Position numbers and translations under genes: made by a program. Below are positions 5,042 through 27,347 of a DNA stretch of 64,000 nt, one piece after another. The stretch covers positions 11,845 through 75,844 of the forward strand of contig JABXIK010000075.1 in NCBI GenBank assembly GCA_013373125.1, read 5' to 3'. The stretch comes from Gammaproteobacteria bacterium (GTDB lineage: Bacteria; Pseudomonadota; Gammaproteobacteria; Pseudomonadales; Oceanobacteraceae). Position 1 is the stretch's first letter. Every line of letters starts with the position of its first letter. The notes below the pieces were generated by a model. The model saw only the letters and a program-made list of their open reading frames with translations. It did not search any database and was not told the origin of the DNA.

Positions 5042-5998
5042 ATGTCTGAAAATTCTAAACGTGGTGTCATTTTCGAGGAAGTCAGCCTAGATTATGCTGG
5101 CCAGCGCCTTGATAACTTTTTGATGTCGCGGATTAAGGGTGCGCCTAAGTCATTGATCTATAGGATCATTCGTAAAGGTGAGGTACGTGTGAATAAAGGC
5201 CGCACCAAGCCGGATTACAAGCTAAAAACAGGGGATTTGGTACGAATCCCGCCTGTTCGAGTCAAAGAAGAGAATAAAATTGAGAATGTCCCAGATCGGT
5301 TGGCTGCGGACATAGAGTCGGCCATTTTGTTTGAAGATGATTATCTAATTGCCGTAAACAAGCCTCGGGGTATGGCGGTTCACGGTGGTAGTGGTATCAG
5401 CTTGGGGCTGATTGAGGCTCTGCGAGTCATTCGTCCGGATATTAAGCGCTTGGAGTTGGTTCATCGCTTGGATCGAGATACCTCTGGCGTGATCTTGGTG
5501 GCTAAAAAGCGCTCGGTTTTGGTAGCGTTGCATGAAATGCTGCAAAAGAAATCCGGCATTCAAAAACGTTACTGGGCTTTGGTGTATGGTTCTTGGCCTA
5601 AGCACATGAAAGATGTAACAGCACCCTTAATAAAGAATGAATTGCAATCAGGTGAGCGCATTGTCAGGGTGTCTCAGCAAGGTAAGCCTTGTCATACCCG
5701 TTATTCTTTGGAGCGTCGCTTTGAAGGATATACCCTGGTAAATGCGGAGCCAGTAACAGGGCGAACCCATCAGATTCGCGTGCACTGTCAGTTTTCAGGC
5801 CATGCTATTGTGGGTGACGAGAAATATGCAACGGATGATGAGTTGAAGCAAGCACGTCAGCAAGGCGCGAGACGTCTATTTTTGCACGCAAAGTCATTAC
5901 GATTTGTGCATCCGCAAACGAAAGAAAACCTGTTGTTAGAGGCGCCCATTGATTCAGCATTTGATGCGTTTTTGAATGCTTTAGCGCCCATTAATTAA
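5042..5998 (+). CDS. rluC: 23S rRNA pseudouridine(955/2504/2580) synthase
   Basis: S4 domain (GQRLDNFL) and HRLDRDTSG catalytic motif; divergent from rne; start moved to ATG 5042. Confidence 0.95.
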   Translation: MSENSKRGVIFEEVSLDYAGQRLDNFLMSRIKGAPKSLIYRIIRKGEVRVNKGRTKPDYKLKTGDLVRIPPVRVKEENKIENVPDRLAADIESAILFEDDYLIAVNKPRGMAVHGGSGISLGLIEALRVIRPDIKRLELVHRLDRDTSGVILVAKKRSVLVALHEMLQKKSGIQKRYWALVYGSWPKHMKDVTAPLIKNELQSGERIVRVSQQGKPCHTRYSLERRFEGYTLVNAEPVTGRTHQIRVHCQFSGHAIVGDEKYATDDELKQARQQGARRLFLHAKSLRFVHPQTKENLLLEAPIDSAFDAFLNALAPIN

Positions 5999-16500: not shown

Positions 16501-16848
16501 ATGGCGCCTAAATTAGGGCCGGGTAACGGCATTTTATCCTTAACCATCAAAGATAAGGCAGTTTTGTACGCTGCCTACATGCCATTTATCAAGCACGGTG
16601 GGTTGTTTATTCCTACCAACAAAAATTACGCCATGGGCGATGAAGTATTCATGCTTTTGAACCTAATGGACGAGCCTGAAAAAATCCCGGTGGCGGGCAA
16701 AGTGATTTGGATTACCCCAAAAGGGGCGCAAGGCAATAAAGCCGCTGGTGTGGGTGTGCAGTTTGCGGAAAACAACACAGCGCGCAATAAGATTGAAACC
16801 CATTTGGCAGGGGCGTTAAGTTCGGATCGACCGACGCATACGTTGTAA
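16501..16848 (+). CDS. pilZ: Type IV pilus assembly PilZ-domain protein
   Basis: LYAAYMPFIKHGGLFIPT...GKVIWITP; canonical position after holB. Confidence 0.95.
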   Translation: MAPKLGPGNGILSLTIKDKAVLYAAYMPFIKHGGLFIPTNKNYAMGDEVFMLLNLMDEPEKIPVAGKVIWITPKGAQGNKAAGVGVQFAENNTARNKIETHLAGALSSDRPTHTL

Positions 16849-16852
16849 ATTT

Positions 16853-16878
16853 AAAAAGCCGGTTCGCCGGCTTTTTTT
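16853..16878. terminator. Bidirectional intrinsic terminator after pilZ
   Basis: AAAAAGCCGG-TTCG-CCGGCTTTTTTT. Confidence 0.9.
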
Positions 16879-16880
16879 AT

Positions 16881-17034
16881 GGGTGAGTGAGTTCAATTTT
16901 TTAAACCGTTCGCACTGAGCAGCGAGGAACGAGCGTAGTCGAAGGGTGGCTGTCTATAAGCGCAAGTGCGTCTTACGAATAGCGTTAATTATTTGAGGTT
17001 TCGCATTTTGGATAATTAAATCCAGCACGGTTTT
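16881..17034. repeat. Copy 1 of a ~155-bp imperfect direct repeat
   Basis: Aligns to 17289-17441 at an offset of ~408 bp (shared GTTCGCACTGAGC...GCGAGGAACGAGC...GTCGAAG...CGCAAGTGCGT...GCGTTAATTATTTGAG...GCACGGTTTT). Confidence 0.95.
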
Positions 17035-17288
17035 TTCTTCTCGGGATTGCATCCCGGACCCTGCTTCGAGGCTCGCCTCACAGTGAATTAGATTGTGGTT
17101 ATGCGGCGTTCGGAGGCCGCATATTGTTATCGACTCGTGTCTGGTTGCCGGTTGGTTCTGAAACAACATTGCTTGTACGAGAGTGTCCCGCGCCCGATAA
17201 ACGGTTGTTCATTAAAACCGTTTTCCCTGAGCTAGTAGGAACCTGCACCCAGAATGCCCCGCGAACGAAGTGAGTGTTTTGGGTATGC

Positions 17289-17441
17289 GGGTGAATGTGA
17301 TTGATTTTTAAAACAGTTCGCACTGAGCGCGAGGAACGAGCAGTCGAAGTGTGGCTAATATCTAATTCGCAAGTGCGTTTTACGGATAGCGTTAATTATT
17401 TGAGTTTTCGCATCTTGGATGATTAAAGCCTGCACGGTTTT
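17289..17441. repeat. Copy 2 of the ~155-bp imperfect direct repeat
   Basis: See copy 1; overlaps the 3' half of the 51-aa ORF. Confidence 0.95.
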
Positions 17442-17510
17442 CTTATTGTATTTCAAGTACTCTGCCCACTTGATTGCCCCTTGCTGTATAAAAAAAGGAC
17501 TTTTGCCCAT
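17355..17510 (-). pseudogene. 51-aa ORF at the integron-integrase position: probable intI remnant or replacement microprotein
   Basis: Starts MGKSPF (resembles IntI N-termini) with an AAGGA RBS; lies just downstream of a LexA box and divergent from attI; no tyrosine-recombinase catalytic residues. Confidence 0.45.
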
Positions 17511-17533
17511 AATCTTTCCTTGCAGTAAAGAAT

Positions 17534-17549
17534 CTGTATAAATAAACAG
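17534..17549. promoter_or_regulatory. LexA (SOS) operator in the integrase-type promoter
   Basis: CTGT-ATAAATAA-ACAG matches CTGT-N8-ACAG exactly; LexA boxes are established features of intI promoters. Confidence 0.9.
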
Positions 17550-17806
17550 TATATTTGAGATTATGAAAGAAAATAGCAAGATGAGGCACGAAAAATCAGA
17601 AAAAAAGTTCTCATTTTTACCTATTCAATAAACGAAAAATACTTTAGATTCAATGGCTTATTAAAATCGCGTCCGAAATCATGAGACCCCATGATTTCGG
17701 ACAAAAGCGGCATGCTCATTTTTATTGGACATAATAAGACGAGAATCAGCTTTAGTGCTTATTAATCAAGCATTTATAGGGTTCTTGAAAGGTTGATTGA
17801 AAATGC

Positions 17807-17840
17807 AAAAATGAGCATGCGCACGATTAAAATGTTAAAT
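17807..17840 (+). other. attI recombination site (core GTTAAAT at 17834-17840)
   Basis: GTTAAAT is the exact reverse complement of the first cassette's inverse core ATTTAAC (18426-18432) but is not preceded by an attC hairpin; left boundary is approximate. Confidence 0.8.
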
Positions 17841-17846
17841 TTAAGT

Positions 17847-18425
17847 ATGAGAAATATGAAAAATATATTAGTTACCTTACTTTTTCTGATGTCTGTAAAA
17901 GTGACAGCTGATGTGGGAAAGCAAGCCTATGACTTAGTAAATTCAGGGGATGTGCAAAAAGCAATTGAATTGCTTTCTAAGAAAGAACATAAAGAAAAGC
18001 CTGAAGCTTTATTCATGATGGGAATGATTTACGACTCAGGAAGAGGTGTTGAAAAGGATATAGTAAAAGCCTCAAATTACTATGAGCGTGCTGCAAAGAA
18101 AGGGAATGCCGTAGCTCAATTTTATATTGGTATGTTTTATAAAGATGGTGTTGGCGTTGAAAAGGACTCGGAGAAGGCAATATATTGGCTTCGAAAAGCT
18201 TCTGAGCATAAAAATACTAGAGCGATGGGTATGTTAGCTGCATTACTAGCAGCTCCAGAAAAAGGAGATTTGATAGAGGCTTATGCATGGGCACATATCG
18301 CCGCAAAGTATGACGCAGTACAAGCCCAAACATCAGCTAGAAAAGTAATTGAACATTATTTAACGAAAGAACAGATAGCCGAAGCAAAGTTGTTAATTAA
18401 AAAAATTGAATCTAATTGGAATTAA
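17847..18425 (+). CDS. Cassette 1: secreted Sel1-like repeat (tetratricopeptide) protein
   Basis: ALFMMGMIYDSGRGVEKDIVKASNYYERAAKKG and AQFYIGMFYKDGVGVEKD Sel1 repeats; signal peptide; start moved inside the cassette. Confidence 0.9.
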   Translation: MRNMKNILVTLLFLMSVKVTADVGKQAYDLVNSGDVQKAIELLSKKEHKEKPEALFMMGMIYDSGRGVEKDIVKASNYYERAAKKGNAVAQFYIGMFYKDGVGVEKDSEKAIYWLRKASEHKNTRAMGMLAALLAAPEKGDLIEAYAWAHIAAKYDAVQAQTSARKVIEHYLTKEQIAEAKLLIKKIESNWN

Positions 18426-18486
18426 ATTTAACAAGGCGCTCAAGCAAGGACGCAGCAAAGCTGCGCCGCTTAGCTTGGCGTTATTT
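18426..18486 (+). repeat. attC1 (61 bp)
   Basis: ATTTAAC...GCTCAAGC/GCTTAGC...GTTATTT. Confidence 0.93.
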
Positions 18487-18503
18487 GGCAACTGGAATCT
18501 AGT

Positions 18504-18812
18504 ATGAGAAAAGTTATTGGTTTAATTCCAGGTATTAGCTTCTTTATATATTTCGTAGCTACGTTTGATGAAATTAAACTATCAATTTTGATGGGAGCTT
18601 TAGCTCAATCTATTGCAGTGGGTAGTATTGGGTATTTCTATTTTAATGCTCCAGCTGGAAGGCATCATACTGAAACTGCTTTCGGAATAACGGGTAAATA
18701 TAGAAACCCGATACACGGAACAATTATACCTGCCAAAACGGCAGTGATTGTCATTGCCATGATTATATTGTCCTGCATTTTAGGTCTAATTTTTAATCGC
18801 TATGGCTATTAA
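18504..18812 (+). CDS. Cassette 2: hypothetical membrane protein (about 3 TM)
   Basis: 102 aa with hydrophobic segments, between attC1 and attC2. Confidence 0.75.
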   Translation: MRKVIGLIPGISFFIYFVATFDEIKLSILMGALAQSIAVGSIGYFYFNAPAGRHHTETAFGITGKYRNPIHGTIIPAKTAVIVIAMIILSCILGLIFNRYGY

Positions 18813-18815
18813 TGC

Positions 18816-18875
18816 AAATAACAAGGCGCTTAAGCTTTGGACGTGCTCCGCACGCCGCTTAGCTTGGCGTTAACT
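18816..18875 (+). repeat. attC2 (60 bp)
   Basis: AAATAAC...GCTTAAGC/GCTTAGC...GTTAACT; very similar to attC1. Confidence 0.93.
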
Positions 18876-18896
18876 CTTCGTGCATTAAGGATAGAT

Positions 18897-19418
18897 ATGC
18901 GAATTTTCTATAGTTTATTACTTCTCTGTTTTTCTCAATTTGTACTTGCTGATTGGAAGGTCCAAGGAATTAGAATGGCCTGTGGAGATGATTTTAAGGT
19001 GCTCTCTCACAATCTAATTAACAAAGAGCCTAAAGAAGAGCTATATGAAGACATTGATGGCTCTTGGCTAGTTTTTAGAGCTCAAGAGAAAGAATTAGAA
19101 TGTAGCCTGAATGGCCTAACAATCAAAAGTAAAGTCACAGGAAAAAAGTCTTCTGCGCGAGGAGCTTGTGGCTCCGCAAAAGGAGCGAGCTTAAGTCTAA
19201 CGATTAATGGATTAGAAATTTTAAAGAATTCATTAATGAATAATGAGTGCTATCAATCAATTGATAAAATTGAAATCAGTCCTCAAAAAATTACAATTTG
19301 TGGCCATCAAGGAAATGGTAAGGCACAGGAATGCTTTGATAGCAGCTGGGAAAATATCAGTGATATGCAATTACCGCTTTCCCCATTTCCAATTAGTAAG
19401 TTAAAAAATCAAGAATGA
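18897..19418 (+). CDS. Cassette 3: secreted Cys-rich hypothetical protein
   Basis: Signal peptide MRIFYSLLLLCFSQFVLA; several Cys in the mature part; supplied start 18837 lies inside attC2. Confidence 0.8.
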   Translation: MRIFYSLLLLCFSQFVLADWKVQGIRMACGDDFKVLSHNLINKEPKEELYEDIDGSWLVFRAQEKELECSLNGLTIKSKVTGKKSSARGACGSAKGASLSLTINGLEILKNSLMNNECYQSIDKIEISPQKITICGHQGNGKAQECFDSSWENISDMQLPLSPFPISKLKNQE

Positions 19419-19521
19419 GTTAACAAGTGGCAGCAACGGACTTGCAAAAGTGTCACTCGTTTTGCCAAAAAGCCGGCAAAACCAGCGCCACTTTTGCAAG
19501 CCGCTGTGCCAGGCGTTAGCT
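19418..19521 (+). repeat. attC3 (104 bp)
   Basis: AGTTAAC...CTTGCAAAAGTG/CACTTTTGCAAG...GTTAGCT. Confidence 0.92.
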
Positions 19522-19538
19522 GTATAAAAGGATATGAT

Positions 19539-20021
19539 ATGAAATTAACACTTGGAAAAACTAGGTGGCAAAGATTTGAGAGTATTGCTCTTCTTGTTTT
19601 GATTTTCTTGGGTCTATCTGGATATGGCGTGTTTAAACATTTTGCCTCAGGAGTAACTTCCTCAGGTGAAGATTCAAAGCAATATGTAGAAGCTTATATT
19701 GCAAGTTCTCTAGAGAAAGAAATTGAGTGTAATTGGGCGGGTTATGCGCAAAGCAGAAAGACCGATCTTAAACAAGTTTTCGTTCAATGCCGTCCTCTTA
19801 ATAATATACCGGTCGAGATTAATAACGAAGAGCAATTACATAAAGCTATTGATGAGTATGTTGTCTCGCCTGCAATACACTCTTTGCCTATGGATGAGGG
19901 GCTTTCTATCGTTACGATTATGCAGATAGATAAAGCAACAGTAACTTGTAACGATATCAGGAAAGGAAAAATAGTTAACCAGTGGATAGATACCTATGAG
20001 AACTATTGCTGGCCACTTTAA
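19539..20021 (+). CDS. Cassette 4: membrane-anchored hypothetical protein
   Basis: N-terminal TM segment; start ATG 19539 after AAGGA. Confidence 0.78.
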   Translation: MKLTLGKTRWQRFESIALLVLIFLGLSGYGVFKHFASGVTSSGEDSKQYVEAYIASSLEKEIECNWAGYAQSRKTDLKQVFVQCRPLNNIPVEINNEEQLHKAIDEYVVSPAIHSLPMDEGLSIVTIMQIDKATVTCNDIRKGKIVNQWIDTYENYCWPL

Positions 20022-20024
20022 ATC

Positions 20025-20072
20025 AGCTAACAAACAAAGGCAGCGGATAAACCGCTGCTTTGGGCGTTAAAA
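20025..20072 (+). repeat. attC4, minimal 48-bp site
   Basis: AGCTAAC-AAACA-AAGGCAGC-GGATAAACC-GCTGCTT-TGGGC-GTTAAAA. Confidence 0.88.
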
Positions 20073-20077
20073 ATCGT

Positions 20078-20380
20078 ATGAATACGGAAGCGCTAAACAA
20101 AGTATTTGAAAGAGTCGCGGTAGCTTTGGAAACTGTGGAGATAGACCAATACTTTTGCGATCCACGTGGTGGGTTCTTATCAATCTTACAAGGAACACGC
20201 ATTTTCTTGCGGAGAGAGAGCTACCCAGAACAAATTGAGTCTCTGGCTAATTCACACCTAGACCAGTGTGAACTATTGCTAAGGGAAGTTACCGAAAATG
20301 GAGTATCTAGTACTTCAAAAAACGAGGCTTTCCGCCTAGCAAAACAAATTAGGGAGCAGCAGTGGGGCCAAACTTTTTAA
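20078..20380 (+). CDS. Cassette 5: hypothetical cytoplasmic protein (100 aa)
   Basis: ORF fills the cassette; stop TAA lies within R'' TTTTAAC. Confidence 0.75.
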   Translation: MNTEALNKVFERVAVALETVEIDQYFCDPRGGFLSILQGTRIFLRRESYPEQIESLANSHLDQCELLLREVTENGVSSTSKNEAFRLAKQIREQQWGQTF

Positions 20381-20518
20381 CAAGGCCAGGCAGGATGCTC
20401 CGGGCCTTCGGCCTTCCGCGGGATAGCGTACCTTGGGCACGTTTTGCGCGGGTCGCTGCGCTCCCAGTTTCGCGAAAAACGTGTACAAGGTAAGCTGCCC
20501 CTGCTGGCGGCGTTACAT
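20375..20518 (+). repeat. attC5 (144 bp, GC-rich)
   Basis: TTTTAAC...branched palindrome (TACCTTGGGCACGTTTT/AAAACGTGTACAAGGTA)...GTTACAT. Confidence 0.9.
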
Positions 20519-20533
20519 TTCTAAGGATATGCA

Positions 20534-21181
20534 GTGACCTCCGATTGGCAGGATTATATTAAGGCTAGAAAGAACGGCTTAAAAAAGCAGTGGAAAGCAC
20601 TGCTTGCAGAGAGGGTCAGTTATATTGATTCCCTTGATGCTGATAAACAAGCCGAATACTTGAATAACCTTTGCCATCATTACTTTGATCTCGGCGCGAC
20701 AGAAATTCCTATTCAGCATCCTGATATCTGGAACAAGATTCTTGAAGCTTGGAAAGTAGCTAATATTTGGGAGAATAGTATCTATCTTTTTTGGCTTGCA
20801 AAGGCATTAACTTCTACGACTGGAAGCTTCAAAGGTGCATATCTGCTATTAAATAAAGATCCTATAGATATATTGAGTAGAGTAATGGAGCTTGACTCAA
20901 ATAACTTTGAGGCAAAGAAAATCTTATTTAAGCAACACCTGCACACTTTAGATTTTGGTATGCATTCAATTGATACTGGAATGGTAATCGAAAAATATGT
21001 AGGTGATGAGGCAATCACGGAATGTGAAAAACTCATAAAAATTGAACCTAATTTAAAACATTGTAAATCTAGATTTGGTGGTGATTTCGAATACTACAAA
21101 AGCAGGTTTTTAGCTTGGTATGAATATTCGAAAGAAGATACAAAATTAGACTTCGATGATTGGTATAAACAAAAAATGTAA
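20534..21181 (+). CDS. Cassette 6: hypothetical cytoplasmic protein (215 aa, probably helical)
   Basis: GTG start 6 nt after AAGGA; stop within R'' ATGTAAC. Confidence 0.8.
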   Translation: MTSDWQDYIKARKNGLKKQWKALLAERVSYIDSLDADKQAEYLNNLCHHYFDLGATEIPIQHPDIWNKILEAWKVANIWENSIYLFWLAKALTSTTGSFKGAYLLLNKDPIDILSRVMELDSNNFEAKKILFKQHLHTLDFGMHSIDTGMVIEKYVGDEAITECEKLIKIEPNLKHCKSRFGGDFEYYKSRFLAWYEYSKEDTKLDFDDWYKQKM

Positions 21182-21247
21182 CAATACGTTGGTGTACGCC
21201 CCTTCGGGGCTGGACGGCTACGCCGCCCCACAACATTGGCGTTAGCG
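21176..21247 (+). repeat. attC6 (72 bp)
   Basis: ATGTAAC...GCCCCTTCGGGGC...GGCTACGCC...GTTAGCG. Confidence 0.92.
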
Positions 21248-21257
21248 AGTAGAACTA

Positions 21258-21677
21258 ATGAGAATGATTAGATATTTAATTGCAGTATTACTAGCTGCTT
21301 CATCTATTTGCTCCAAAGCTGAAGTATTTACACCCGTCGGTACTTTTAGTGACTTGAAATGTATTGAATCACAAGGTGATGTTCTTGGGGTTGAAATATC
21401 ATTTATCCCAGGCTTCAAAGATTCACGATATGAGTATTATGCTTTGGTTCAATTTGCGGAAGGTGTCGCAGCTAAACCAGAGTATGTACCTGTAAAAATG
21501 GTCAAGGATGAATTTTCATTTCTGGTTAATTATCTTGGATACTTTGATGTAACCGTTGAAGGTAAAATTTCAAGCGACCGCTTGATTGGTAAAATCAGCG
21601 CACCACTAAAACAAGAGATTGAATTGAAAAGACAAGTTAGCTTCTGGAATAGAGGTGGGTCTCAGTGTATTCGCTAA
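21258..21677 (+). CDS. Cassette 7: secreted hypothetical protein
   Basis: Signal peptide; stop within R'' CGCTAAC. Confidence 0.8.
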   Translation: MRMIRYLIAVLLAASSICSKAEVFTPVGTFSDLKCIESQGDVLGVEISFIPGFKDSRYEYYALVQFAEGVAAKPEYVPVKMVKDEFSFLVNYLGYFDVTVEGKISSDRLIGKISAPLKQEIELKRQVSFWNRGGSQCIR

Positions 21678-21747
21678 CAAAGCCAGCCAAAATCGCCAGC
21701 AAGCTGGCTGGACTCGTTTCACTCGCCATTGCTGGCAGGCGTTAGGT
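21672..21747 (+). repeat. attC7 (76 bp)
   Basis: CGCTAAC...GCCAGCAAGCTGGC...GTTAGGT; near-identical to attC12, similar to attC10. Confidence 0.93.
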
Positions 21748-21763
21748 TCATCAAGGAAGTCCA

Positions 21764-22564
21764 ATGCGAAGAAATCGAAATATAAGCAATATAATAGGTG
21801 GTGGACCTGCTTTAGATCTCGTTTCAACAGTTGAAAGATTTGTATATAGAACCCCTATAGATAGAAATGAAGAACTACATTTTGAAGAGTTAGATCAAGA
21901 TTTGCTTCAATATGCGCTTGATGCAGAACAAATATCTGAAAATACGGCCTTGCACAAGGTATTAAGTGATTTAGCGTACATTGACTTCTACTTATATCTT
22001 TATGATGACCTAGATTGGGTTAGTGAGTATACGGACTTTTCAGAGTATGCAATCACCATGTTTAAACATATGAATATAACTGTGCCTAGAGAGTTTAATA
22101 GAAAGTCAGCAGAAGGAATTATCGAGGCGAGAGACTTACATCGAGATTTATTTCTTTCCGGCCTGCAAACTTTTGTAAACTCAGCCTTTGCTCACTTATG
22201 GTATAGAAAAGCGTTCTTACATGATTTCAACGTTAGATTGGCAGAGAAGATCGCTCCTTTGTTAAAGTCCGACTTTCCATGTCTAGAGCAGGATGGAAGG
22301 CTGGCAAGGGCGCAGCATTTCAATAAATGGGTTCGTGATTTAATACTAAATCGAGAGGGCGGGCTTTGCCATTATTGTAGCCAGCCAGTAGCAATACCTT
22401 CGCTGCCCAACCAAACCTACGACATTGATCATATGGTTCCCATCGCACGAGGCGGAACAAATGACCCTACTAATTTGGTTTTATCATGTTCAAAATGCAA
22501 CAACAAAAAAAGAGCCAAGGTTCAATCAGTACCAGACACTTTTGCCTGGCCAGAGAGAACCTAA
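21764..22564 (+). CDS. Cassette 8: HNH endonuclease (C-terminal HNH domain)
   Basis: CHYC...DIDHMVPIARGGTNDPTNLVLSCSKCNNKK is a classic Zn-bound HNH motif. Confidence 0.9.
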   Translation: MRRNRNISNIIGGGPALDLVSTVERFVYRTPIDRNEELHFEELDQDLLQYALDAEQISENTALHKVLSDLAYIDFYLYLYDDLDWVSEYTDFSEYAITMFKHMNITVPREFNRKSAEGIIEARDLHRDLFLSGLQTFVNSAFAHLWYRKAFLHDFNVRLAEKIAPLLKSDFPCLEQDGRLARAQHFNKWVRDLILNREGGLCHYCSQPVAIPSLPNQTYDIDHMVPIARGGTNDPTNLVLSCSKCNNKKRAKVQSVPDTFAWPERT

Positions 22565-22618
22565 CAAATCAAAGCACTCGGACGCAGCAATGCTGCGCCG
22601 GTGTTTGAGGCGTTATAA
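22559..22618 (+). repeat. attC8 (60 bp)
   Basis: ACCTAAC...AAAGCACT/GGTGTTT...GTTATAA. Confidence 0.92.
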
Positions 22619-22624
22619 ATCAAC

Positions 22625-23053
22625 ATGAAAAAATTACTATTTTCTTTAATGTTTCTTTCACCTAGTTTGTATGCTTGTGAAATACCACTGGGTAAATATA
22701 TCGCGATTACAGAAACTGAGTATTCACTTGAGCTTGAACTTAAAGCTGATGGGCTTTACACGTTTTATCATAAAAATTGGCTCCCAGGAGGCCTTCATCA
22801 TGTTGGTGAAGAGCACATTTATAAAGGGTTATATGTCTGTACTGCTAATAAGCTTATTCTCGTTTACACAGACATAAGCGAAAAATTAATAGGCACATAT
22901 ATTGAGCGGTCTCTGAAAGATGAAGGTTTTCCTCTGGAGGTGGGGGAAACAAAAGTTTTAGATTTTACTGGGGCACCCGAAACAAAAAGTGTTGTCACTG
23001 GTTGGTACTATTGGCCGGAAAGCTATGTTCAAGAGGCTTCTGAAAATTTATAA
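22625..23053 (+). CDS. Cassette 9: secreted hypothetical protein
   Basis: Signal peptide MKKLLFSLMFLSPSLYA-C; stop within R''. Confidence 0.8.
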   Translation: MKKLLFSLMFLSPSLYACEIPLGKYIAITETEYSLELELKADGLYTFYHKNWLPGGLHHVGEEHIYKGLYVCTANKLILVYTDISEKLIGTYIERSLKDEGFPLEVGETKVLDFTGAPETKSVVTGWYYWPESYVQEASENL

Positions 23054-23176
23054 CAAAGCCATCATGCGTCGCCAGCAAGCTGGCTGGACAAATTTTCCTT
23101 CGTTTGTTTTGTGGCTTAACGCTACGCTACCACAAAACAATCAACTCCAAATTTGCCGCATATGGCGGCGTTATGA
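23048..23176 (+). repeat. attC9 (129 bp)
   Basis: TTATAAC...TTTGTTTTGTGG/CCACAAAACAA...GTTATGA. Confidence 0.92.
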
Positions 23177-23188
23177 GGCAGAGCTGAT

Positions 23189-23482
23189 TTGAAGCTTTTA
23201 TTTTACTTTATAAATATCGCTTTAATTTTAAGTGTGTTGGCTTGGCCATATGGCATATTAATCAGCACATTTATGTTTAGCGACCCAAGTATTACTTATA
23301 CAATTAGTCACGAAATTTTAGGTTATTGGATTATATTTTATCCCGCACTTGTCTATATCGGGAGCACTCGTTTTTTCAAAAAACGAAATATTGAACCCAT
23401 TTTAAAATTATCAGGATATACTGTCATTTCAGCCTTAGGACCTATTCCGTTTTTTATTTTGTATCTTTTAAATGTTCACTGA
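23189..23482 (+). CDS. Cassette 10: hypothetical membrane protein (about 3 TM)
   Basis: TTG start; hydrophobic segments. Confidence 0.7.
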   Translation: MKLLFYFINIALILSVLAWPYGILISTFMFSDPSITYTISHEILGYWIIFYPALVYIGSTRFFKKRNIEPILKLSGYTVISALGPIPFFILYLLNVH

Positions 23483-23516
23483 ATTTTCAGTGTACTCAGA
23501 AAATAGATTTTAAATC

Positions 23517-23590
23517 TCATAACAAAGCCAGCCAATTCGCCAGTAAGCTGGCTGGACACGTAAACTCGCCATTGCTGGCAGGCGTTAGGT
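23517..23590 (+). repeat. attC10 (74 bp)
   Basis: TCATAAC...GTTAGGT; same family as attC7 and attC12. Confidence 0.92.
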
Positions 23591-23595
23591 GAACA

Positions 23596-23898
23596 ATGGA
23601 TAATCAAGCAAAGGCGCTAGCCGCAATAAAGGAAGCTTCTGGCACGGAGTTAGGTGAATATAGTGTTGATGAATTTATTTCACACCATCTAGAGGAATTG
23701 CCAGCCGATTACTGGAAAAAGCATTTAGGTACAACCTCTCCGACTACTGAAAGTGTCATTGGGCTGCTTGTTTTACGCAGCAAGTGGGATGATTCTGAAG
23801 TATATGATTTTACTCTCCCCGAAGAGGTTACAGATTATGTTGTTAGCGTATCATTTGACGACGACGGTGAAATTGAAGATATAACAATGGAAAGTTAA
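23596..23898 (+). CDS. Cassette 11: small acidic protein, DUF2004-like
   Basis: C-terminal DFTLPEEVTDYVVSVSFDDDGEIEDITMES resembles DUF2004 as recalled from memory, not searched. Confidence 0.55.
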   Translation: MDNQAKALAAIKEASGTELGEYSVDEFISHHLEELPADYWKKHLGTTSPTTESVIGLLVLRSKWDDSEVYDFTLPEEVTDYVVSVSFDDDGEIEDITMES

Positions 23899-23902
23899 GT
23901 TC

Positions 23903-24003
23903 ACCTAACAAGTCATTTCAGCAGGACAAAAAACAGCTGGTTTTTGCTCGTGCCTCGCTAATTTTAACCAGCTATTTTGTTGCCTCTGAATGAGGCGTTA
24001 ATA
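23903..24003 (+). repeat. attC11 (101 bp)
   Basis: ACCTAAC...AGCTGGTT/AACCAGCT...GTTAATA. Confidence 0.92.
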
Positions 24004-24011
24004 GTATAAAT

Positions 24012-24437
24012 ATGATATTTACATTCCCTAAAAACGTAGCTTCAAAAGCTCAAAGTAATATCCGCTGGTTAATTTTAGTTTGGATTGTACTCTTGGGTTT
24101 CATGATAGGAACATCGCCAAAGGAACAAGGAGAGATGCCTAGTCTATTTAATGCTATATCATCAGCATTATTTAGCTTTTGGTTCTTTGTTTTATTTTCT
24201 ATAGTTATTGCCGTTTCATACTTTAAGGAAAAACCTGGAATCCCCGTGAGCTCTTTTTGGGTGCAAGTAACTAGCTCTAATTGGTACGTTAAGCTATCAA
24301 GTTCTAGCATTCTTTCATGGCTTAATAAGAAATGGAGTCAATTTGCGTATTTAATGTTTTTATTAGTATTCTACGCGATGGGTTTATTCGGATTATTTAC
24401 ACTTTTTTTCATTGTATATGGTTATTCAGAAATTTAA
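24012..24437 (+). CDS. Cassette 12: hypothetical membrane protein (about 3 TM)
   Basis: Hydrophobic segments; ORF fills the cassette. Confidence 0.75.
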   Translation: MIFTFPKNVASKAQSNIRWLILVWIVLLGFMIGTSPKEQGEMPSLFNAISSALFSFWFFVLFSIVIAVSYFKEKPGIPVSSFWVQVTSSNWYVKLSSSSILSWLNKKWSQFAYLMFLLVFYAMGLFGLFTLFFIVYGYSEI

Positions 24438-24448
24438 TTTCAAAGCAC

Positions 24449-24524
24449 TATTAACAAATCCAGCCAAAATCGCCAGCAAGCTGGCTGGACTCGTTTCACT
24501 CGCCTTTGCTGGCAAACGTTATTT
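24449..24524 (+). repeat. attC12 (76 bp)
   Basis: TATTAAC...GTTATTT; near-identical to attC7. Confidence 0.92.
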
Positions 24525-24533
24525 ATCGCGGTA

Positions 24534-25142
24534 ATGATACTCGTTAGGGTTATAGGTATGATTTATTTTCGATTTCTTCTTATTTTAGTTTTTTTTAGTG
24601 GTGTTGGTGCTTGTGCATATGGTCCAACTAATAATGTCGATTTTAATAATAAAATTAGTTTAAAAGATTTAGATGGCTCTTATGAGAATGAAATGGAAAC
24701 TACAGAAAATAACTTGAACCTATTTTCTGCATACATATGGCCATACCCCGAAAATCTACAATATAAAGAGCTTTTGGCTCTTTCAAATAAGCACAAAAAT
24801 ATAGATCTTATAAATATATCACTTTTAGGGTCTGAACTAATATTCGAAGCTATTGATAATAATTGTGTAATATTAAAGAAAAGTATCAATGTTCATTATC
24901 GATTTGAAAGTGGACAATTTAAATTAGAGTCAAGTTATAGCAATTGGAGTGAAGTTCATATAGGCCCAAAATTTAATAAGAAAACTATTGGATTGGATCT
25001 TAATGATTATGCCAAACTGAGAAGCTTAGACCGTGCTGGAGGGTTAGCATTTTGGGTTATTCCATTTGCAATATTCGAATCAAGAGATTATAGAATTAAA
25101 AGAGTTTCTGAAAAGCATTCATTCGCTGAGTGTAAAACTTAA
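24534..25142 (+). CDS. Cassette 13: putative lipoprotein
   Basis: Hydrophobic leader ending GVGA-C (lipobox-like); true start may be 24558. Confidence 0.72.
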   Translation: MILVRVIGMIYFRFLLILVFFSGVGACAYGPTNNVDFNNKISLKDLDGSYENEMETTENNLNLFSAYIWPYPENLQYKELLALSNKHKNIDLINISLLGSELIFEAIDNNCVILKKSINVHYRFESGQFKLESSYSNWSEVHIGPKFNKKTIGLDLNDYAKLRSLDRAGGLAFWVIPFAIFESRDYRIKRVSEKHSFAECKT

Positions 25143-25206
25143 ACTATTGGCATAAGTAATCGTTAATGTGTCAAGTACAAAAAGTACGCAGTATAAGCTT
25201 CAAACT

Positions 25207-25254
25207 AAATAACAAATCGTTCTTGCGGATGAACCGCAAAACTAGGCGTTAGGA
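25207..25254 (+). repeat. attC13, minimal 48-bp site
   Basis: AAATAAC-AAATC-GTTCTTGC-GGATGAACC-GCAAAAC-TAGGC-GTTAGGA. Confidence 0.9.
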
Positions 25255-25260
25255 ATACTT

Positions 25261-25602
25261 ATGTTGGATACTGAACGTTCAATATTAATTTGGTTTAGTG
25301 TTGCTATGATTCCCACTGTGATCTATTCAATAATTCAGATTGCCTTTTACAGTGGTTTAAAAAATAATTTCCCTAAGCAATGGGAGCACGCTGGCCGACC
25401 TACAATATGGTCTGACGGTAGCTGGGTCACTTCCGGTCATGTTATTGATTACCTGCGAAATGAAAAGTTTAGAGAAAGTAATGACACACTAGGTATGGAA
25501 TATTGTAGGAATAATAGAAAAGCTATGATTCTAAGTTATTGGCTATCTATATATTCATGTGGCGCATTCTTTATTTTTCTTCTTATTACTGCATATTGGT
25601 AA
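25261..25602 (+). CDS. Cassette 14: UspB-like two-TM membrane protein
   Basis: Size (113 aa), topology and the pattern LKNxxP...YL...KFR...D...C..NR...IL parallel E. coli UspB; aligned by eye. Confidence 0.55.
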   Translation: MLDTERSILIWFSVAMIPTVIYSIIQIAFYSGLKNNFPKQWEHAGRPTIWSDGSWVTSGHVIDYLRNEKFRESNDTLGMEYCRNNRKAMILSYWLSIYSCGAFFIFLLITAYW

Positions 25603-25615
25603 CACAAGTGGCTAC

Positions 25616-25699
25616 TCCTAGCAAAGCAAGGCACAACCGCACAGCGAGCTGTGCTGGACTCACTCATACTTCACTCGCCTGTGCTTGCGGGCGTTACAA
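25616..25699 (+). repeat. attC14 (84 bp) with mutated inverse core
   Basis: R'' reads TCCTAGC instead of TCCTAAC; R' is GTTACAA. Confidence 0.85.
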
Positions 25700-25705
25700 G
25701 GCACA

Positions 25706-25993
25706 ATGAAATTAAGAGCCTGAGTTCATTTGTTAACTTCATTTACCTTCATGTCTCTATTGGGGATGGAGTTTATAGCTTTTCTAATAGCTAACTTTTT
25801 CGACGGAGTATGGGTTTTAATTGTTGCGGGCCAATTGATACTTTTGACTTTAGCTGTATTTTGGATGCACAAAGTAACATCTATTAAATGTGTATCTTGT
25901 GGGAAGCCTTATGGAGTATTGATTGGTATAGAGTGCTGGCCATCCTTACCACCTAGGTGCCAAAGTTGTGGAAGTGATATGGATGCCTTGTAA
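25706..25993 (+). pseudogene. Cassette 15: membrane protein with C-terminal CxxC...CxxC; in-frame TGA at codon 6
   Basis: ATG AAA TTA AGA GCC TGA GTT CAT TTG... is in frame with the supplied ORF 25730-25993. Confidence 0.65.
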
Positions 25994-26058
25994 TAAAAAA
26001 ATGATCGCCCTAAGAGCTGGACTTCACTACGTTCGGCCCATTACTAAGGGCGCTACGA
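25988..26058 (+). repeat. attC15, degenerate terminal site (71 bp)
   Basis: R'' TTGTAAT (AAC to AAT) and R' GCTACGA (GTT to GCT); internal CACTACGTTCG module retained. Confidence 0.7.
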
Positions 26059-26066
26059 ATTAAAAC

Positions 26067-26312
26067 ATGCTTAAAAAACTAAACCAATTACTAGAATCCA
26101 TTCCATATCCGCTCTTACTGGTCATGAGTGTGTTTATGTTGATCGCGCCCATTCAGCCTGAGCCGCACTTAGTGCAAAAGTTTCATTGGTTGGTGAAGGG
26201 GTTACCGTTTAAGGCGATTGATGTGTTTGATGTGTTCTGGCACTTGTTGCCATTGTTTCTGTTAGGGTTGAAATTTTTCTTGGCTAGGCATTATCAACGG
26301 CCTCACTCTTAA
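26067..26312 (+). CDS. Small conserved-looking membrane protein
   Basis: PxxPEPHLxxK...IDVFDVFWH pattern; no downstream attC, so treated as chromosomal. Confidence 0.7.
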   Translation: MLKKLNQLLESIPYPLLLVMSVFMLIAPIQPEPHLVQKFHWLVKGLPFKAIDVFDVFWHLLPLFLLGLKFFLARHYQRPHS

Positions 26313-26324
26313 AGCGCGAGCGTA

Positions 26325-27347
26325 TTAACGTTCACGCTCACGAAATTCTCCGGGTGTCATACCCAGCCAGCTTTTAAAACTACGATGAAATGATCTTGGT
26401 TCGCTAAAACCTAAGCGCGCGGCAATGTCTTGAATAGAAAGTTCGCTGCTAATGAGTAAATGTTTGGCTTGTTCTTGGCGAACGTCATCTAAAATATTTT
26501 GGTAGCTGGTGTCATGCTGTTGCAGGCGACGTTGCATGGTGCGTTCTGACATGCCGAGACGTTTGGCCACCATTTCTTTTCGAGGGATGCCTTCTACTAA
26601 TAATCCCTTAATCACATTTTTGGTTTGCATGGGTAATGGCTGTTTGTCGCTGATGTTGGCCATTAATATGTCGGCGTGATTTTCTAGGGTTTTTAGCAGT
26701 TGTTCGTCGGGTTGGCGCATGGGTAGGGCCAGTAGTTTTTGATCAATGATCAAAGAGCTGTGGTCGCAGTTAAATTCCATGGGGCACTGAAACATGCTTT
26801 GAAATTGCAACATGGCATTGTGATCCGGTTGCGGAAATTCAAAATAGATTTTGCGGGGATTGCCGTTGGGTTTGTCGGTAAGAAAGCGGGCAAAGTTAAT
26901 CCACGAGCCCAGTACGTTGGCGATCATATGTGGGCGCACCGTTGGGTCTGGGTAGTGGCAGTGCCAACGCATTTCGATGGCGCCATCGTCTTGTGAGAGA
27001 ACTTCTGTGTGTCCCATGTCGCCCACTAAGCGCTCATAGGTGGGGGTGATCTTGATGGCTTCTTTAAGGCTTTTGCAATTCATTACCATGTAGCCTAAAA
27101 CACTGTAGGAGCCTGCTTGCACGTAGCGCGAGCTTTTTAAACCAAAGCAGGGGTCTTGTGTGGCGCGGGCTAGATAAGCCAGAACACGCTGAAACTCTTC
27201 GCCTGTGATGCGCTTTACATCATTATTTAAGACTTCCAAGCTCACGTCGTTTGCGTTGAGCACGTGGGCAGGGTCTAGCCCATAGTCGGCAGCGGCTTTT
27301 AGATATTGCAATATGGCCGGTGATGAAGCATAACCTAGGTGATTCAT
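26325..27347 (-). CDS. AraC-family regulator (long N-terminal ligand domain; GliR/PA3027-like)
   Basis: C-terminal double HTH (VAKRLGMSERTMQRRL...LGFSEPRSFHRSFKSWLGMTPGEFR); divergent from the AGPS operon. Confidence 0.92.
   Translation of the reverse strand: MNHLGYASSPAILQYLKAAADYGLDPAHVLNANDVSLEVLNNDVKRITGEEFQRVLAYLARATQDPCFGLKSSRYVQAGSYSVLGYMVMNCKSLKEAIKITPTYERLVGDMGHTEVLSQDDGAIEMRWHCHYPDPTVRPHMIANVLGSWINFARFLTDKPNGNPRKIYFEFPQPDHNAMLQFQSMFQCPMEFNCDHSSLIIDQKLLALPMRQPDEQLLKTLENHADILMANISDKQPLPMQTKNVIKGLLVEGIPRKEMVAKRLGMSERTMQRRLQQHDTSYQNILDDVRQEQAKHLLISSELSIQDIAARLGFSEPRSFHRSFKSWLGMTPGEFRERER

Follow-up and report, generated by a model that had tools for sequence, protein, structure and literature searches.

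Repetitive extragenic palindromes (REPs) and the bacterial interspersed mosaic elements (BIMEs) that contain them are mobilised by RAYT transposases of the Y1 type (PMC2817692, PMC3333891, PMC3116915, PMC3733652). What defines the described REP superfamilies is an unpaired tag, GT[AG]G or CGTC, at the stem base. A related Y1/HUH transposase of the RAYT kind, TIRYT, has a C-terminal helix-turn-helix domain; its genes are flanked by terminal inverted repeats (TIRs) containing GGGGWSAS, which are 3'-overlapping, and the elements have been named TIRtrons (PMC3733652). TIRYT elements make up subclass 2.1 (PMC6006769). Among integrons, clusters of attC sites without an integrase are known as CALINs (PMC4889954), and inactivated integrase (intI) genes have been described in Xanthomonas (PMC12444791). 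Here we describe a non-coding region of about 600 bp, between the terminator of pilZ and the remains of an intI gene, in a 64-kb stretch of contig JABXIK010000075.1 (the window; 64,000 nucleotides). Its host is a Bermanella-like gammaproteobacterium, with a PilZ protein 99% identical to that of a Bermanella metagenome-assembled genome (MAG). A first-pass annotation had described the region as a duplicated hairpin-rich element in the place of a missing integrase.

We read the region as a REP/BIME-like mosaic that underwent local duplication within a decayed CALIN-type integron platform, and we give this reading a probability of roughly 0.55. On the same reading, the two 155-bp direct repeats that dominate the region are paralogous copies of a non-coding segment within a mosaic of palindromic modules that extends from the pilZ terminator to the intI remains. 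Related loci are designated by number (L001, L187 and so on), and positions given without a locus number are those of the window.

Direct repeats and hairpin modules next to pilZ

Copy 1 of the repeat (16881-17036, + strand) consists of a leader, GGGTGAGTGAGTTCAATTTTTT, a hairpin that we call module A, and the 75-nt segment B (16961-17036). Copy 2 (17289-17443, + strand) has the same order, with module A at 17314-17355 and segment B at 17368-17443. The two are diverged direct repeats about 408 bp apart, as the first-pass annotation had stated: 16881-17034/17040 and 17289-17441/17448 are 84.6% identical over 156 aligned columns (BLAST E 6e-42), with an offset of 408 bp. BLAST identified no further full copy of either repeat in the 64-kb window; a 31-nt partial third copy of the left part lies at 17212-17242. 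Segment B is not an independent repeat but the first part of a core of about 200 nt, of which copy 2 is a partial duplicate lacking the remainder. The 155-bp unit is not one element: it joins a hairpin module that can be swapped to a 75-nt segment specific to the locus.

Module A, the left half of the repeat, is a hairpin of about 45 nt with the arrangement CTGAGC...GCGAGGAACGAGC...GTCGAAG. Its long form in copy 1 (16906-16950, + strand) reads CCGTTCGCAC-TGAGC-A-GCGAGGAACGAGC-GT-AGTCGAA-GGGTGGC, and both copies fit CCGTTCGCAC-TGAGC-(A)-GCGAGGAACGAGC-(GT)-AGTCGAA-G(G/T)GTGGC. As read from the sequences, the helix alternates Watson-Crick pairs with tandem sheared G.A/A.G pairs and ends in a GAA loop. 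The inner hairpin, GCGAG-GAA-CGAGC, is visible directly in the sequence, and actinobacterial examples contain up to three G.A blocks. A search with the exact pattern GCGAGGAACGAGC-N0-3-AGTCGAAG, using one genome per species, matched 99 stretches in at least six phyla (Actinomycetota, Armatimonadota, Verrucomicrobiota/PVC, Acidobacteriota, and Alpha- and Gammaproteobacteria). The actinomycetotal hosts are Enemella, Microbacterium and Gordonia, and others include Chthoniobacterales, PVC (Planctomycetes-Verrucomicrobia-Chlamydiae) bacteria, an Acidobacteriota MAG, Sphingobium, Colwellia, Neptunicella and Bermanella. Single genomes can contain dozens of loci, as in Enemella evansiae; there are several in Colwellia and Bermanella MAGs, and the 64-kb window holds two to three copies. 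The three closing pairs around C-UGAG...CGAA-G covary, with 82-86 of 87 distinct copies paired compared with about 39 when shuffled. These positions use GC, CG, AT and TA pairs, with 19 G.T to 5 A.C when read on the CTGAGC strand.

The occurrence of multiple copies across phyla and the covarying closing stem agree with the first-pass description of the GA-rich module as a REP-like palindrome. Like REPs and BIMEs, module A is a short imperfect palindrome that in other genomes is multi-copy, intergenic and located 3' of genes, and its tips are GNA loops closed by sheared G.A pairs. It forms a stem-loop as imperfect palindromes of ~20-40 nt do, with a slightly greater length of ~45 nt. None of the 22 intergenic copies in low-GC genomes lies between divergent genes, and since REP elements show the same gene-relative distribution (PMC3733652), module A is distributed as REPs are. 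However, its inner 13-nt hairpin is nearly identical across phyla, while a REP family is usually confined to one species or genus. Literature searches with the module A sequence and its translations found no match, and there is no corresponding Rfam family.

Module A is replaceable by other REP types at the copy 1 position. Contigs from other samples that encode an identical PilZ either have module A at copy 1 (L083, L085) or have a GTAG-type palindrome, TTCGTGTAGGGCGCATGTGAGCCCTACGAGC, in its place between the same flanks, GGGTGAGTGA and CGCAAGTGCG (L081, L082, L084). The syntenic metagenome contig L187 has a short module A at the copy 1 position (CTGAGC-TT-GTCAAAG). Directly 5' of segment B there is a CGTC-type REP in L185 and L202 and a GTAG-type REP in L190 and L205. 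Mosaic clusters of this kind, in which genuine GTAG- and CGTC-type REPs take the same spot in relatives, are a further likeness to BIMEs. In L185 (2760-2834, minus strand) the CGTC-type REP, TGTC-TTACCCGC-GAAG-GCGGGTA-T-CCA, has inserted where segment B begins, and a 13-bp direct duplication, GCAAGTGCGTTTT, flanks it; this resembles a target-site duplication, which is unusual for REPs.

All of the stems named in the first-pass annotation are present in the sequence, among them CGGGAT-TGC-ATCCCG (17042-17056), ATGCGGC/GCCGCAT (17100-17123) and AACGGTT/AACCGTT. Two of the accompanying claims hold in part. The stem AAACCGT/ACGGTTT does close copy 1, but it is weakened in copy 2 (AAACAGT) and missing in relatives without module A. 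G.T-compatible changes do preserve the pairing of the AT-rich 13-bp stem in the two window copies, but the stem is disrupted or missing in copy 1 of L187 and in L185, L190 and L202. The spacer between the copies is 96 nt longer in the window than in L187, the difference (17212-17307) consisting of two modules. The first, module A' (17216-17246, + strand; ACCGTTTTCCCTGAGCTAGTAGGAAC...), is a short degenerate relative of module A assigned to direct-repeat family D2 and is not found at the corresponding position in L187. The second, hpX (17247-17284, + strand; ACCCAGAATGC-CCCGCGAACGAAGTGA-GTGTTTTGGGT), folds into an 11-bp stem with three G.T pairs on the + strand. Modules related to hpX occur in L115, L202 and L205, short hpX matches sit in other sequence contexts in metatranscriptome contigs, and repeat modules of the A'/hpX type occur elsewhere in both orientations.

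The description of the region as hairpin-rich applies to these individual modules and not to the energy of whole units. Compared with dinucleotide shuffles, the folding z-scores of copy 1, copy 2 and the spacer are -0.34, +0.28 and -1.18 on the + strand and -1.62, -0.58 and -1.02 on the - strand. Because whole units fold no better than shuffles, the hairpin richness belongs to single modules, not to the regional energy. The 155-bp unit is small, non-coding, hairpin-bearing and apparently non-autonomous, like miniature inverted-repeat transposable elements (MITEs) and the palindromic elements of the IS200-IS605 group. Unlike a MITE, however, it has neither TIRs nor a target-site duplication; inverted repeats are found neither around the individual copies nor around the whole insertion, and the limits of the unit are set only by the paralogy of the two copies. 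The proposal of a non-autonomous element processed as single-stranded DNA is thus compatible with the modules and with the TIRtron end at the right border, but not with the 155-bp unit, which is not a single entity. No promoter-like site was identified within the unit, and the promoter and terminator scan gave counts equal or close to those expected from shuffled sequence.

Copy 1, the spacer, copy 2 and a terminal repeat to their right are all present in L187 (copy 1 orthologue at 5801-5947), and the duplication is therefore older than the split between the species of the window and of L187. Segment B of copy 1 is about 90% identical to its orthologue, whereas copy 2 orthologues are about 85% identical, as are the paralogues, and the hairpins are better preserved in the first copies than in the duplicated ones. 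This would fit constraint or more frequent conversion acting on copy 1 and the core, with copy 2 drifting as a partial duplicate.

The integrase scar and the TIRtron terminus

To the right of the mosaic lies an intI stump of nine codons (17484-17510, minus strand; start codon 17510-17508), ATG GGC AAA AGT CCT TTT TTT ATA CAG, which encodes MGKSPFFIQ. This peptide matches the N-termini of intact IntI proteins of relatives (MSKSPFLNQ, MSKSIFLTQ and MGKSAFLNE) and lies at an equal distance from the LexA box and attI. Where the gene is retained or recognisably degraded in relatives, it starts with ATG-x-AAA-AGY-...-TTY on the minus strand, or M(S/G/P/A)KS(P/I/A)F. A tblastn search with an IntI1 probe, which is weaker than a profile search, identified no further IntI similarity in the window, including 16.8-17.8 kb. 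The negative result is meaningful because the same probe recovers IntI at other loci, with 43-46% identity.

Upstream of the stump, in the intI promoter region, is the sequence CTGTATAAATAAACAG (17534-17549), which we take to be a LexA site given the known SOS control of intI. Of 28 related attI platforms, 15 have a CTGT-N8-ACAG-like box some 300-323 nt to the left of the crossover, including all 5 whose intI is intact or frameshifted; many of the remaining 13 have no sequence at this position. The attI region itself (17550-17837, + strand) ends in GCATGCGCACGATTAAAATGTTA, with the crossover GTTA at 17834-17837. L187 is 91% identical to the window over 17547-17837, and the homology ends exactly at ...ACGATTAAAATGTTA. 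The attI end ATGCNCACGATTAAAATGTTA was located 27 times in genomes of Bermanella, Oceaniserpentilla, Oleispira and Thalassolituus, many of which have two to four such sites, and the conserved end ...ATGCGCACGATTAAAATGTTA is common to all 27 loci. An intact intI is present at three of the sites (L192, L199, L206), on the opposite strand and starting 337-384 nt from GTTA; these proteins align with the IntI1 probe over 315 residues at about 44% identity. The gene is frameshifted at two sites and internally deleted at one, and the other sites with enough upstream sequence show no IntI-coding similarity.

The window possesses the attI of a complete integron, and of its integrase gene nine N-terminal codons. 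Because attI, the LexA box and the intI start are retained, the locus is a complete platform that lost intI by deletion and not an array fragment. Comparison with the loci that retain intI bears out the first-pass placement of the element in the position of the missing integrase. Like a CALIN, the window has attC cassettes, arrayed over about 8 kb, but no neighbouring integrase gene, and related genomes have several such arrays and at most one intI. Unlike a CALIN, it keeps a recognisable attI, a LexA box and the intI start codon, and the gap is filled by a recurrent conserved core and repeat modules. Relatives show other junctions: the core of L190 adjoins about 80 nt of decayed intI, and in L185 it is module A that borders the attI region. 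This indicates that intI was lost several times or progressively.

Immediately left of the stump is a solo right TIR of a TIRtron (17454-17474, minus strand). It reads CAAGTGGGCAGAGTAC on the minus strand, compared with CAAGGGGTCAGAGTAC in relatives (CAAGTACTCTGCCCACTTGAT and CAAGTACTCTGACCCCTTGAT, respectively, on the + strand). The relatives' repeat contains GGGGWSAS, as in described TIRtrons; the window copy is mutated and represents the right-hand repeat only. The repeat overlaps the stop codon of a TIRYT C-terminal fragment (...GGDRKSL.F.ENQVL*) in L001, which is the closest relative at the pilZ locus, and in L217, whose sample also contains the species of the window. L213 contains a decayed element with both repeats, ATCAAGGGGTCAGATTAC ... 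CAAGTACTCCACCCCCTTGAT, and a TIRYT C-terminal fragment between them. In all three loci, the only ones with such fragments, the repeat overlaps the 3' end of a TIRYT-like coding fragment, as in TIRtrons. A search for close full-length relatives of this fragment yielded three short proteins only. The integron loci have the right-hand repeat only, and the 155-bp unit is part of no TIRtron among the loci examined.

The outer edge of the terminal repeat is joined to about codon 10 of intI in the window, to a position just left of the LexA box in L205, and to a position inside the LexA box in L187. These three different junctions in the intI region suggest deletions starting at the end of the element. 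In addition, tandem duplications end in the terminal repeat in L187 (module A, segment B and the repeat, with a period of 164) and in L205 (the 3' end of a small open reading frame (ORF) and the repeat, with a period of ~169). Judging from junction geometry, both the deletions and the duplications appear to start at the TIRtron terminus. It is this end, and not the duplicated unit, that demonstrably borders the deletion. The suggestion that insertion or recombination of the duplicated element had removed intI therefore needs amending: the solo TIRtron repeat at the stump and the three junctions speak for such an event, but the duplicated unit does not lie at the deletion border.

Terminal repeats in two relatives carry additional sequences. 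In L217 (355-500) a MITE of about 125 bp with perfect 18-bp TIRs, GAATGGCACTAAGTTAAG, lies inside the TIRtron repeat and is flanked by duplicated TACTCTGACCC. In L001 (10625-10712) a tandem 9-mer, CGCCTTGAT, directly follows the TIRtron repeat up to the contig end, its unit copying the final bases of the repeat. A Y1 transposase of another family than TIRYT (331 aa, HYH motif; 12-1007) is encoded in L201, on a contig with a frameshifted integron integrase, and by its length and taxon is possibly subclass 2.3 (PMC6006769).

Bermanella-group genomes (L188-L212, L115, L185) have two to four attI platforms and at most one intact or nearly intact intI. Four platforms are found in Oceaniserpentilla sp. 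4NH20-0058 and two in the complete genome of Bermanella sp. R86531. The comparison suggests that the orphan attI sites are served by an integrase in trans. On the minus strand of the window (17510-17356) the intI start codon reads in frame into the antisense of segment B, giving a 51-codon ORF, MGKSPFFIQQGAIKWAEYLKYNKKTVQALIIQDAKTQIINAIRKTHLRIRY. This chimeric ORF behind the LexA box is probably fortuitous, but could give an SOS-induced micropeptide or transcript.

The attI region contains two further features. A 111-bp element (17710-17820) has perfect 14-bp inverted repeats, GCATGCTCATTTTT/AAAAATGAGCATGC, and is kept in L187; in run X1 four alternative short contigs lie over 17677-17801, and the element may be multi-copy or polymorphic. 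A hairpin with a GAGACC-type centre (17670-17703) occurs at the same position in about 20 related platforms (L185-L211). Its arms covary strongly, with CCGAAATCATGAG/CCCATGATTTCGG in the window and ATAACGAG/CTCGTTAT or GATTGCGAG/CCGCAATT elsewhere, and it has a terminator-like score on the minus strand. Its role could be that of a regulator site, or of a terminator protecting intI from antisense transcription.

The conserved core and competing explanations

The conserved non-coding core (16961-17164, + strand) consists, in order, of segment B of copy 1, the CGGGAT/ATCCCG hairpin, GCTTCG.GGCTCGCCTCAC, the ATGCGGC/GCCGCAT hairpin and GGTTGGTTCTGAAAC. The exact segment B pattern was found only in L185, L186 (the same contig as L082) and L187 in genome and metagenome collections. 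A profile hidden Markov model (HMM) of the core, run over 2.4 Mb of fetched sequence, matched only the window, contigs of the same species, L187, L185, L190, L202 and part of L205. In total the core occupies six loci in at least five species at different chromosomal sites, such as between pilZ and an araC-family gene in the window and L187 and between aroC and a major facilitator superfamily transporter gene in L185. Every example lies left of an attI platform without intI and in the same orientation, and attI-region sequence types differ among these loci. The core was not identified in the five loci with an intact or frameshifted intI, where intI is instead flanked by tRNA genes, dcd and others. 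The core and attI region share 86-92% identity with L187, whereas the flanking genes average 74-78%. A 60-90-nt stretch of the L185 and L202 core is missing in the window, L084 and L187.

Under the reading as a REP/BIME-like mosaic in a decayed platform, one or more deletions from the exact outer edge of the terminal repeat would have removed intI, leaving nine codons, the LexA box and attI, while the cassette array would still have turned over, presumably via an integrase encoded elsewhere. Y1 transposases acting in trans on single-stranded DNA may have spread the hairpin modules, the intI deletions may have been transposase-mediated, and the duplication may have arisen by recombination or slippage between repeat modules. 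The repeats would then have no function of their own here beyond possible transcript termination or stabilisation.

Several observations weigh against this reading. Copies of module A start ...CCGTTCRYNC-TGAGC and have neither the GT[AG]G nor the CGTC tag on either strand. Module A (twice), module A' and hpX all lie on the + strand, in direct orientation, unlike the alternating modules of classical BIMEs and REPINs. Within 8-kb loci, tblastn with a Y1-transposase probe identified no RAYT or other Y1 transposase gene beside module A, and its mobilisation by such an enzyme is for that reason hypothetical. The window also contains neither a left TIRtron repeat nor a Y1 (HUH) transposase gene, so the case for a transposase-mediated deletion is one of junction geometry. 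Of the RAYT, GIY-YIG or HUH nuclease neighbours that the first-pass annotation had proposed to look for, the window encodes none. Identity to L187 is 85-92% in the core and copy 2 compared with 74-78% in flanking genes, which would exceed the expectation for passive junk unless the platform was exchanged recently. In two small hairpins of the core there are compensatory changes, from CGGGAT/ATCCCG to CGGGGT/ACCCCG and from GGAT/ATCC to GGCT/AGCC, that fit a functional RNA or DNA structure. Finally, in run X1, where the organism reaches ~660x, alternative contigs at single-copy depth overlie 16968-17180 and 17677-17890, one of them joining a core of 91% identity directly to the attI end. These suggest further platforms in the same genome or population, and may be paralogues or strain variants.

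A different view of the core, which we regard as possible but doubtful, is that it is a functional structured RNA or cis element of integrase-less platforms, acting from the + strand, with copy 2 decaying and module A a passenger. Such an element might insulate the array from, or terminate, incoming transcription, or act in recombination with an integrase in trans. The recurrence of the core at six loci and at different chromosomal sites, always left of attI and never with a retained intI, favours this view, as does its identity of 82-97% where housekeeping DNA shows 74-83%. So do the compensatory changes, the several one-sided changes that are G.U-compatible on the + strand only, and the better pairing of first-copy stems. 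However, the RNAalifold covariation term on six core sequences is +2.59, a net penalty, and z-scores of the minimum free energy are unremarkable. Large lineage-specific indels fall within the core, the window lacking ~60-90 nt that are present in L185 and L202, and recent platform exchange could account for the high identity. The scan identified no promoter-like site upstream of the core, no RNA run holds the core sequence, and metatranscriptome contigs cover pilZ but not the core, with only 35-39-nt modules in foreign contexts. Of the structured non-coding RNA that the first-pass annotation offered as an alternative, what survives is a weak case confined to the core, drawn from the two hairpins with compensatory changes and set against the positive covariation term, the lack of an Rfam family and the RNA runs. 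A broader version appears improbable to us: that the ~200-nt core is an undescribed functional RNA or DNA element of integrase-less platforms, repeatedly recruited next to attI regions of different types, and that, separately, module A is the substrate of an enzyme that processes ssDNA or RNA hairpins across phyla. On that version the core could serve as an insulator or terminator, or as a cis element that lets IntI supplied in trans use an orphan attI.

A simpler possibility is a neutral tandem duplication of intergenic DNA without any mobile element, the stems being chance features of a G+T-rich strand. It would account for the presence of just two full copies in the window, for whole-unit folding no better than shuffles, for the silence of the RNA runs and metatranscriptome contigs, and for an old duplication, predating the split from L187, with copies that drifted to 85%. 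Yet module A is a covarying hairpin family with many copies in many phyla and is exchanged for other REP types within one species, the core recurs at unrelated chromosomal sites, and more duplications end at the same terminal repeat in L187 and L205. A single-locus neutral duplication was the outcome that the first-pass annotation had set against its own proposal; the core at six loci and module A in at least six phyla contradict it. The multi-locus occurrence largely refutes this explanation, and we consider it very unlikely.

Degenerate protein-coding sequence, of intI or another gene duplicated during decay, might be suspected from the length of the region, which is about that of intI and in its place, and from a minus-strand frame that is open from the intI start through segment B of copy 2. 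We give this very little credence. The IntI1 probe that recovers IntI elsewhere is negative in the window, L185 and L187, and Pfam searches with the local ORFs were empty. A coding core was also considered and rejected: its indels are not multiples of three, there is no conserved frame, and the differences are mostly non-synonymous. A minus-strand peptide, KTVLALIIQNAK.QIIN, recurs over the six loci in six-frame translation but is interrupted by stops in L190 and L202, and the changes that compensate the hairpins alter it non-conservatively. Hardly any weight falls on a known catalytic or mobile RNA, whether an attC-type group II intron without an ORF, a hammerhead-like ribozyme or an IS605-type guide RNA. 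The element does start a few bases past an intrinsic terminator, a typical group IIC target, and there is some likeness to a portion of the hammerhead core in CUGA...GAA with its tandem G.A. However, module A has no three-way junction, being a simple two-strand hairpin, and no TnpB, IscB or reverse transcriptase gene is nearby. Rfam 15 has no match at the gathering score in the whole window, and searches to E=10 of 16700-17900 and of the longer cores in L202 and L190 gave chance-level matches only, the hairpin of the pilZ terminator falling within such weak matches.

The cassette array, its surroundings and their meaning

The region follows mltG, tmk, holB and pilZ. The PilZ-domain ORF (16501-16848) lies upstream of the repeats, and its intrinsic terminator, AAAAAGCCGGTTCGCCGGCTTTTTTT (16852-16878, + strand), forms the left border of the variable region. 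To the right of attI is the gene-cassette array (17838-26060, + strand), with about 13 short ORFs and attC spacers of the form TAACAAAGCC...GGCGTTA; around 12 attC-like sites lie between 18429 and 25700, where two without a nearby IntI define a CALIN. The first cassette (17856-18425) encodes a secreted Sel1-repeat protein and another (21764-22564) an HNH endonuclease of 266 aa, and most of the other cassettes have no Pfam match. A minus-strand araC-family gene follows the array. In most Bermanella relatives pilZ directly adjoins this gene and 16.85-26.3 kb is missing, which identifies that interval as an insertion or variable region. A transposon carrying the whole array was considered, but no inverted repeats connect the left (16849-17560) and right (25550-26400) ends; a plasmid or phage origin was likewise not supported, as blastn gave no match. 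ARAGORN identified no tRNA or tmRNA in the window.

For annotation, the locus illustrates how an apparently mysterious structured element can come down to a palindromic-repeat mosaic and a local duplication at the site of an integrase gene deletion. Beyond the ordinary are the recurrence of the core beside integrase-less attI platforms and the conservation of module A across phyla. The module A hairpin, with up to three tandem G.A blocks, is nearly unchanged in at least six phyla and has no described family or mobilising enzyme. Deletions of intI that start exactly at the terminal repeat of a Y1-transposase element would be a concrete route for the inactivation of chromosomal integrons. The Bermanella group, with several attI platforms per genome, most of them without intI, and cassettes that differ between related loci, is a natural system for integrase action in trans.

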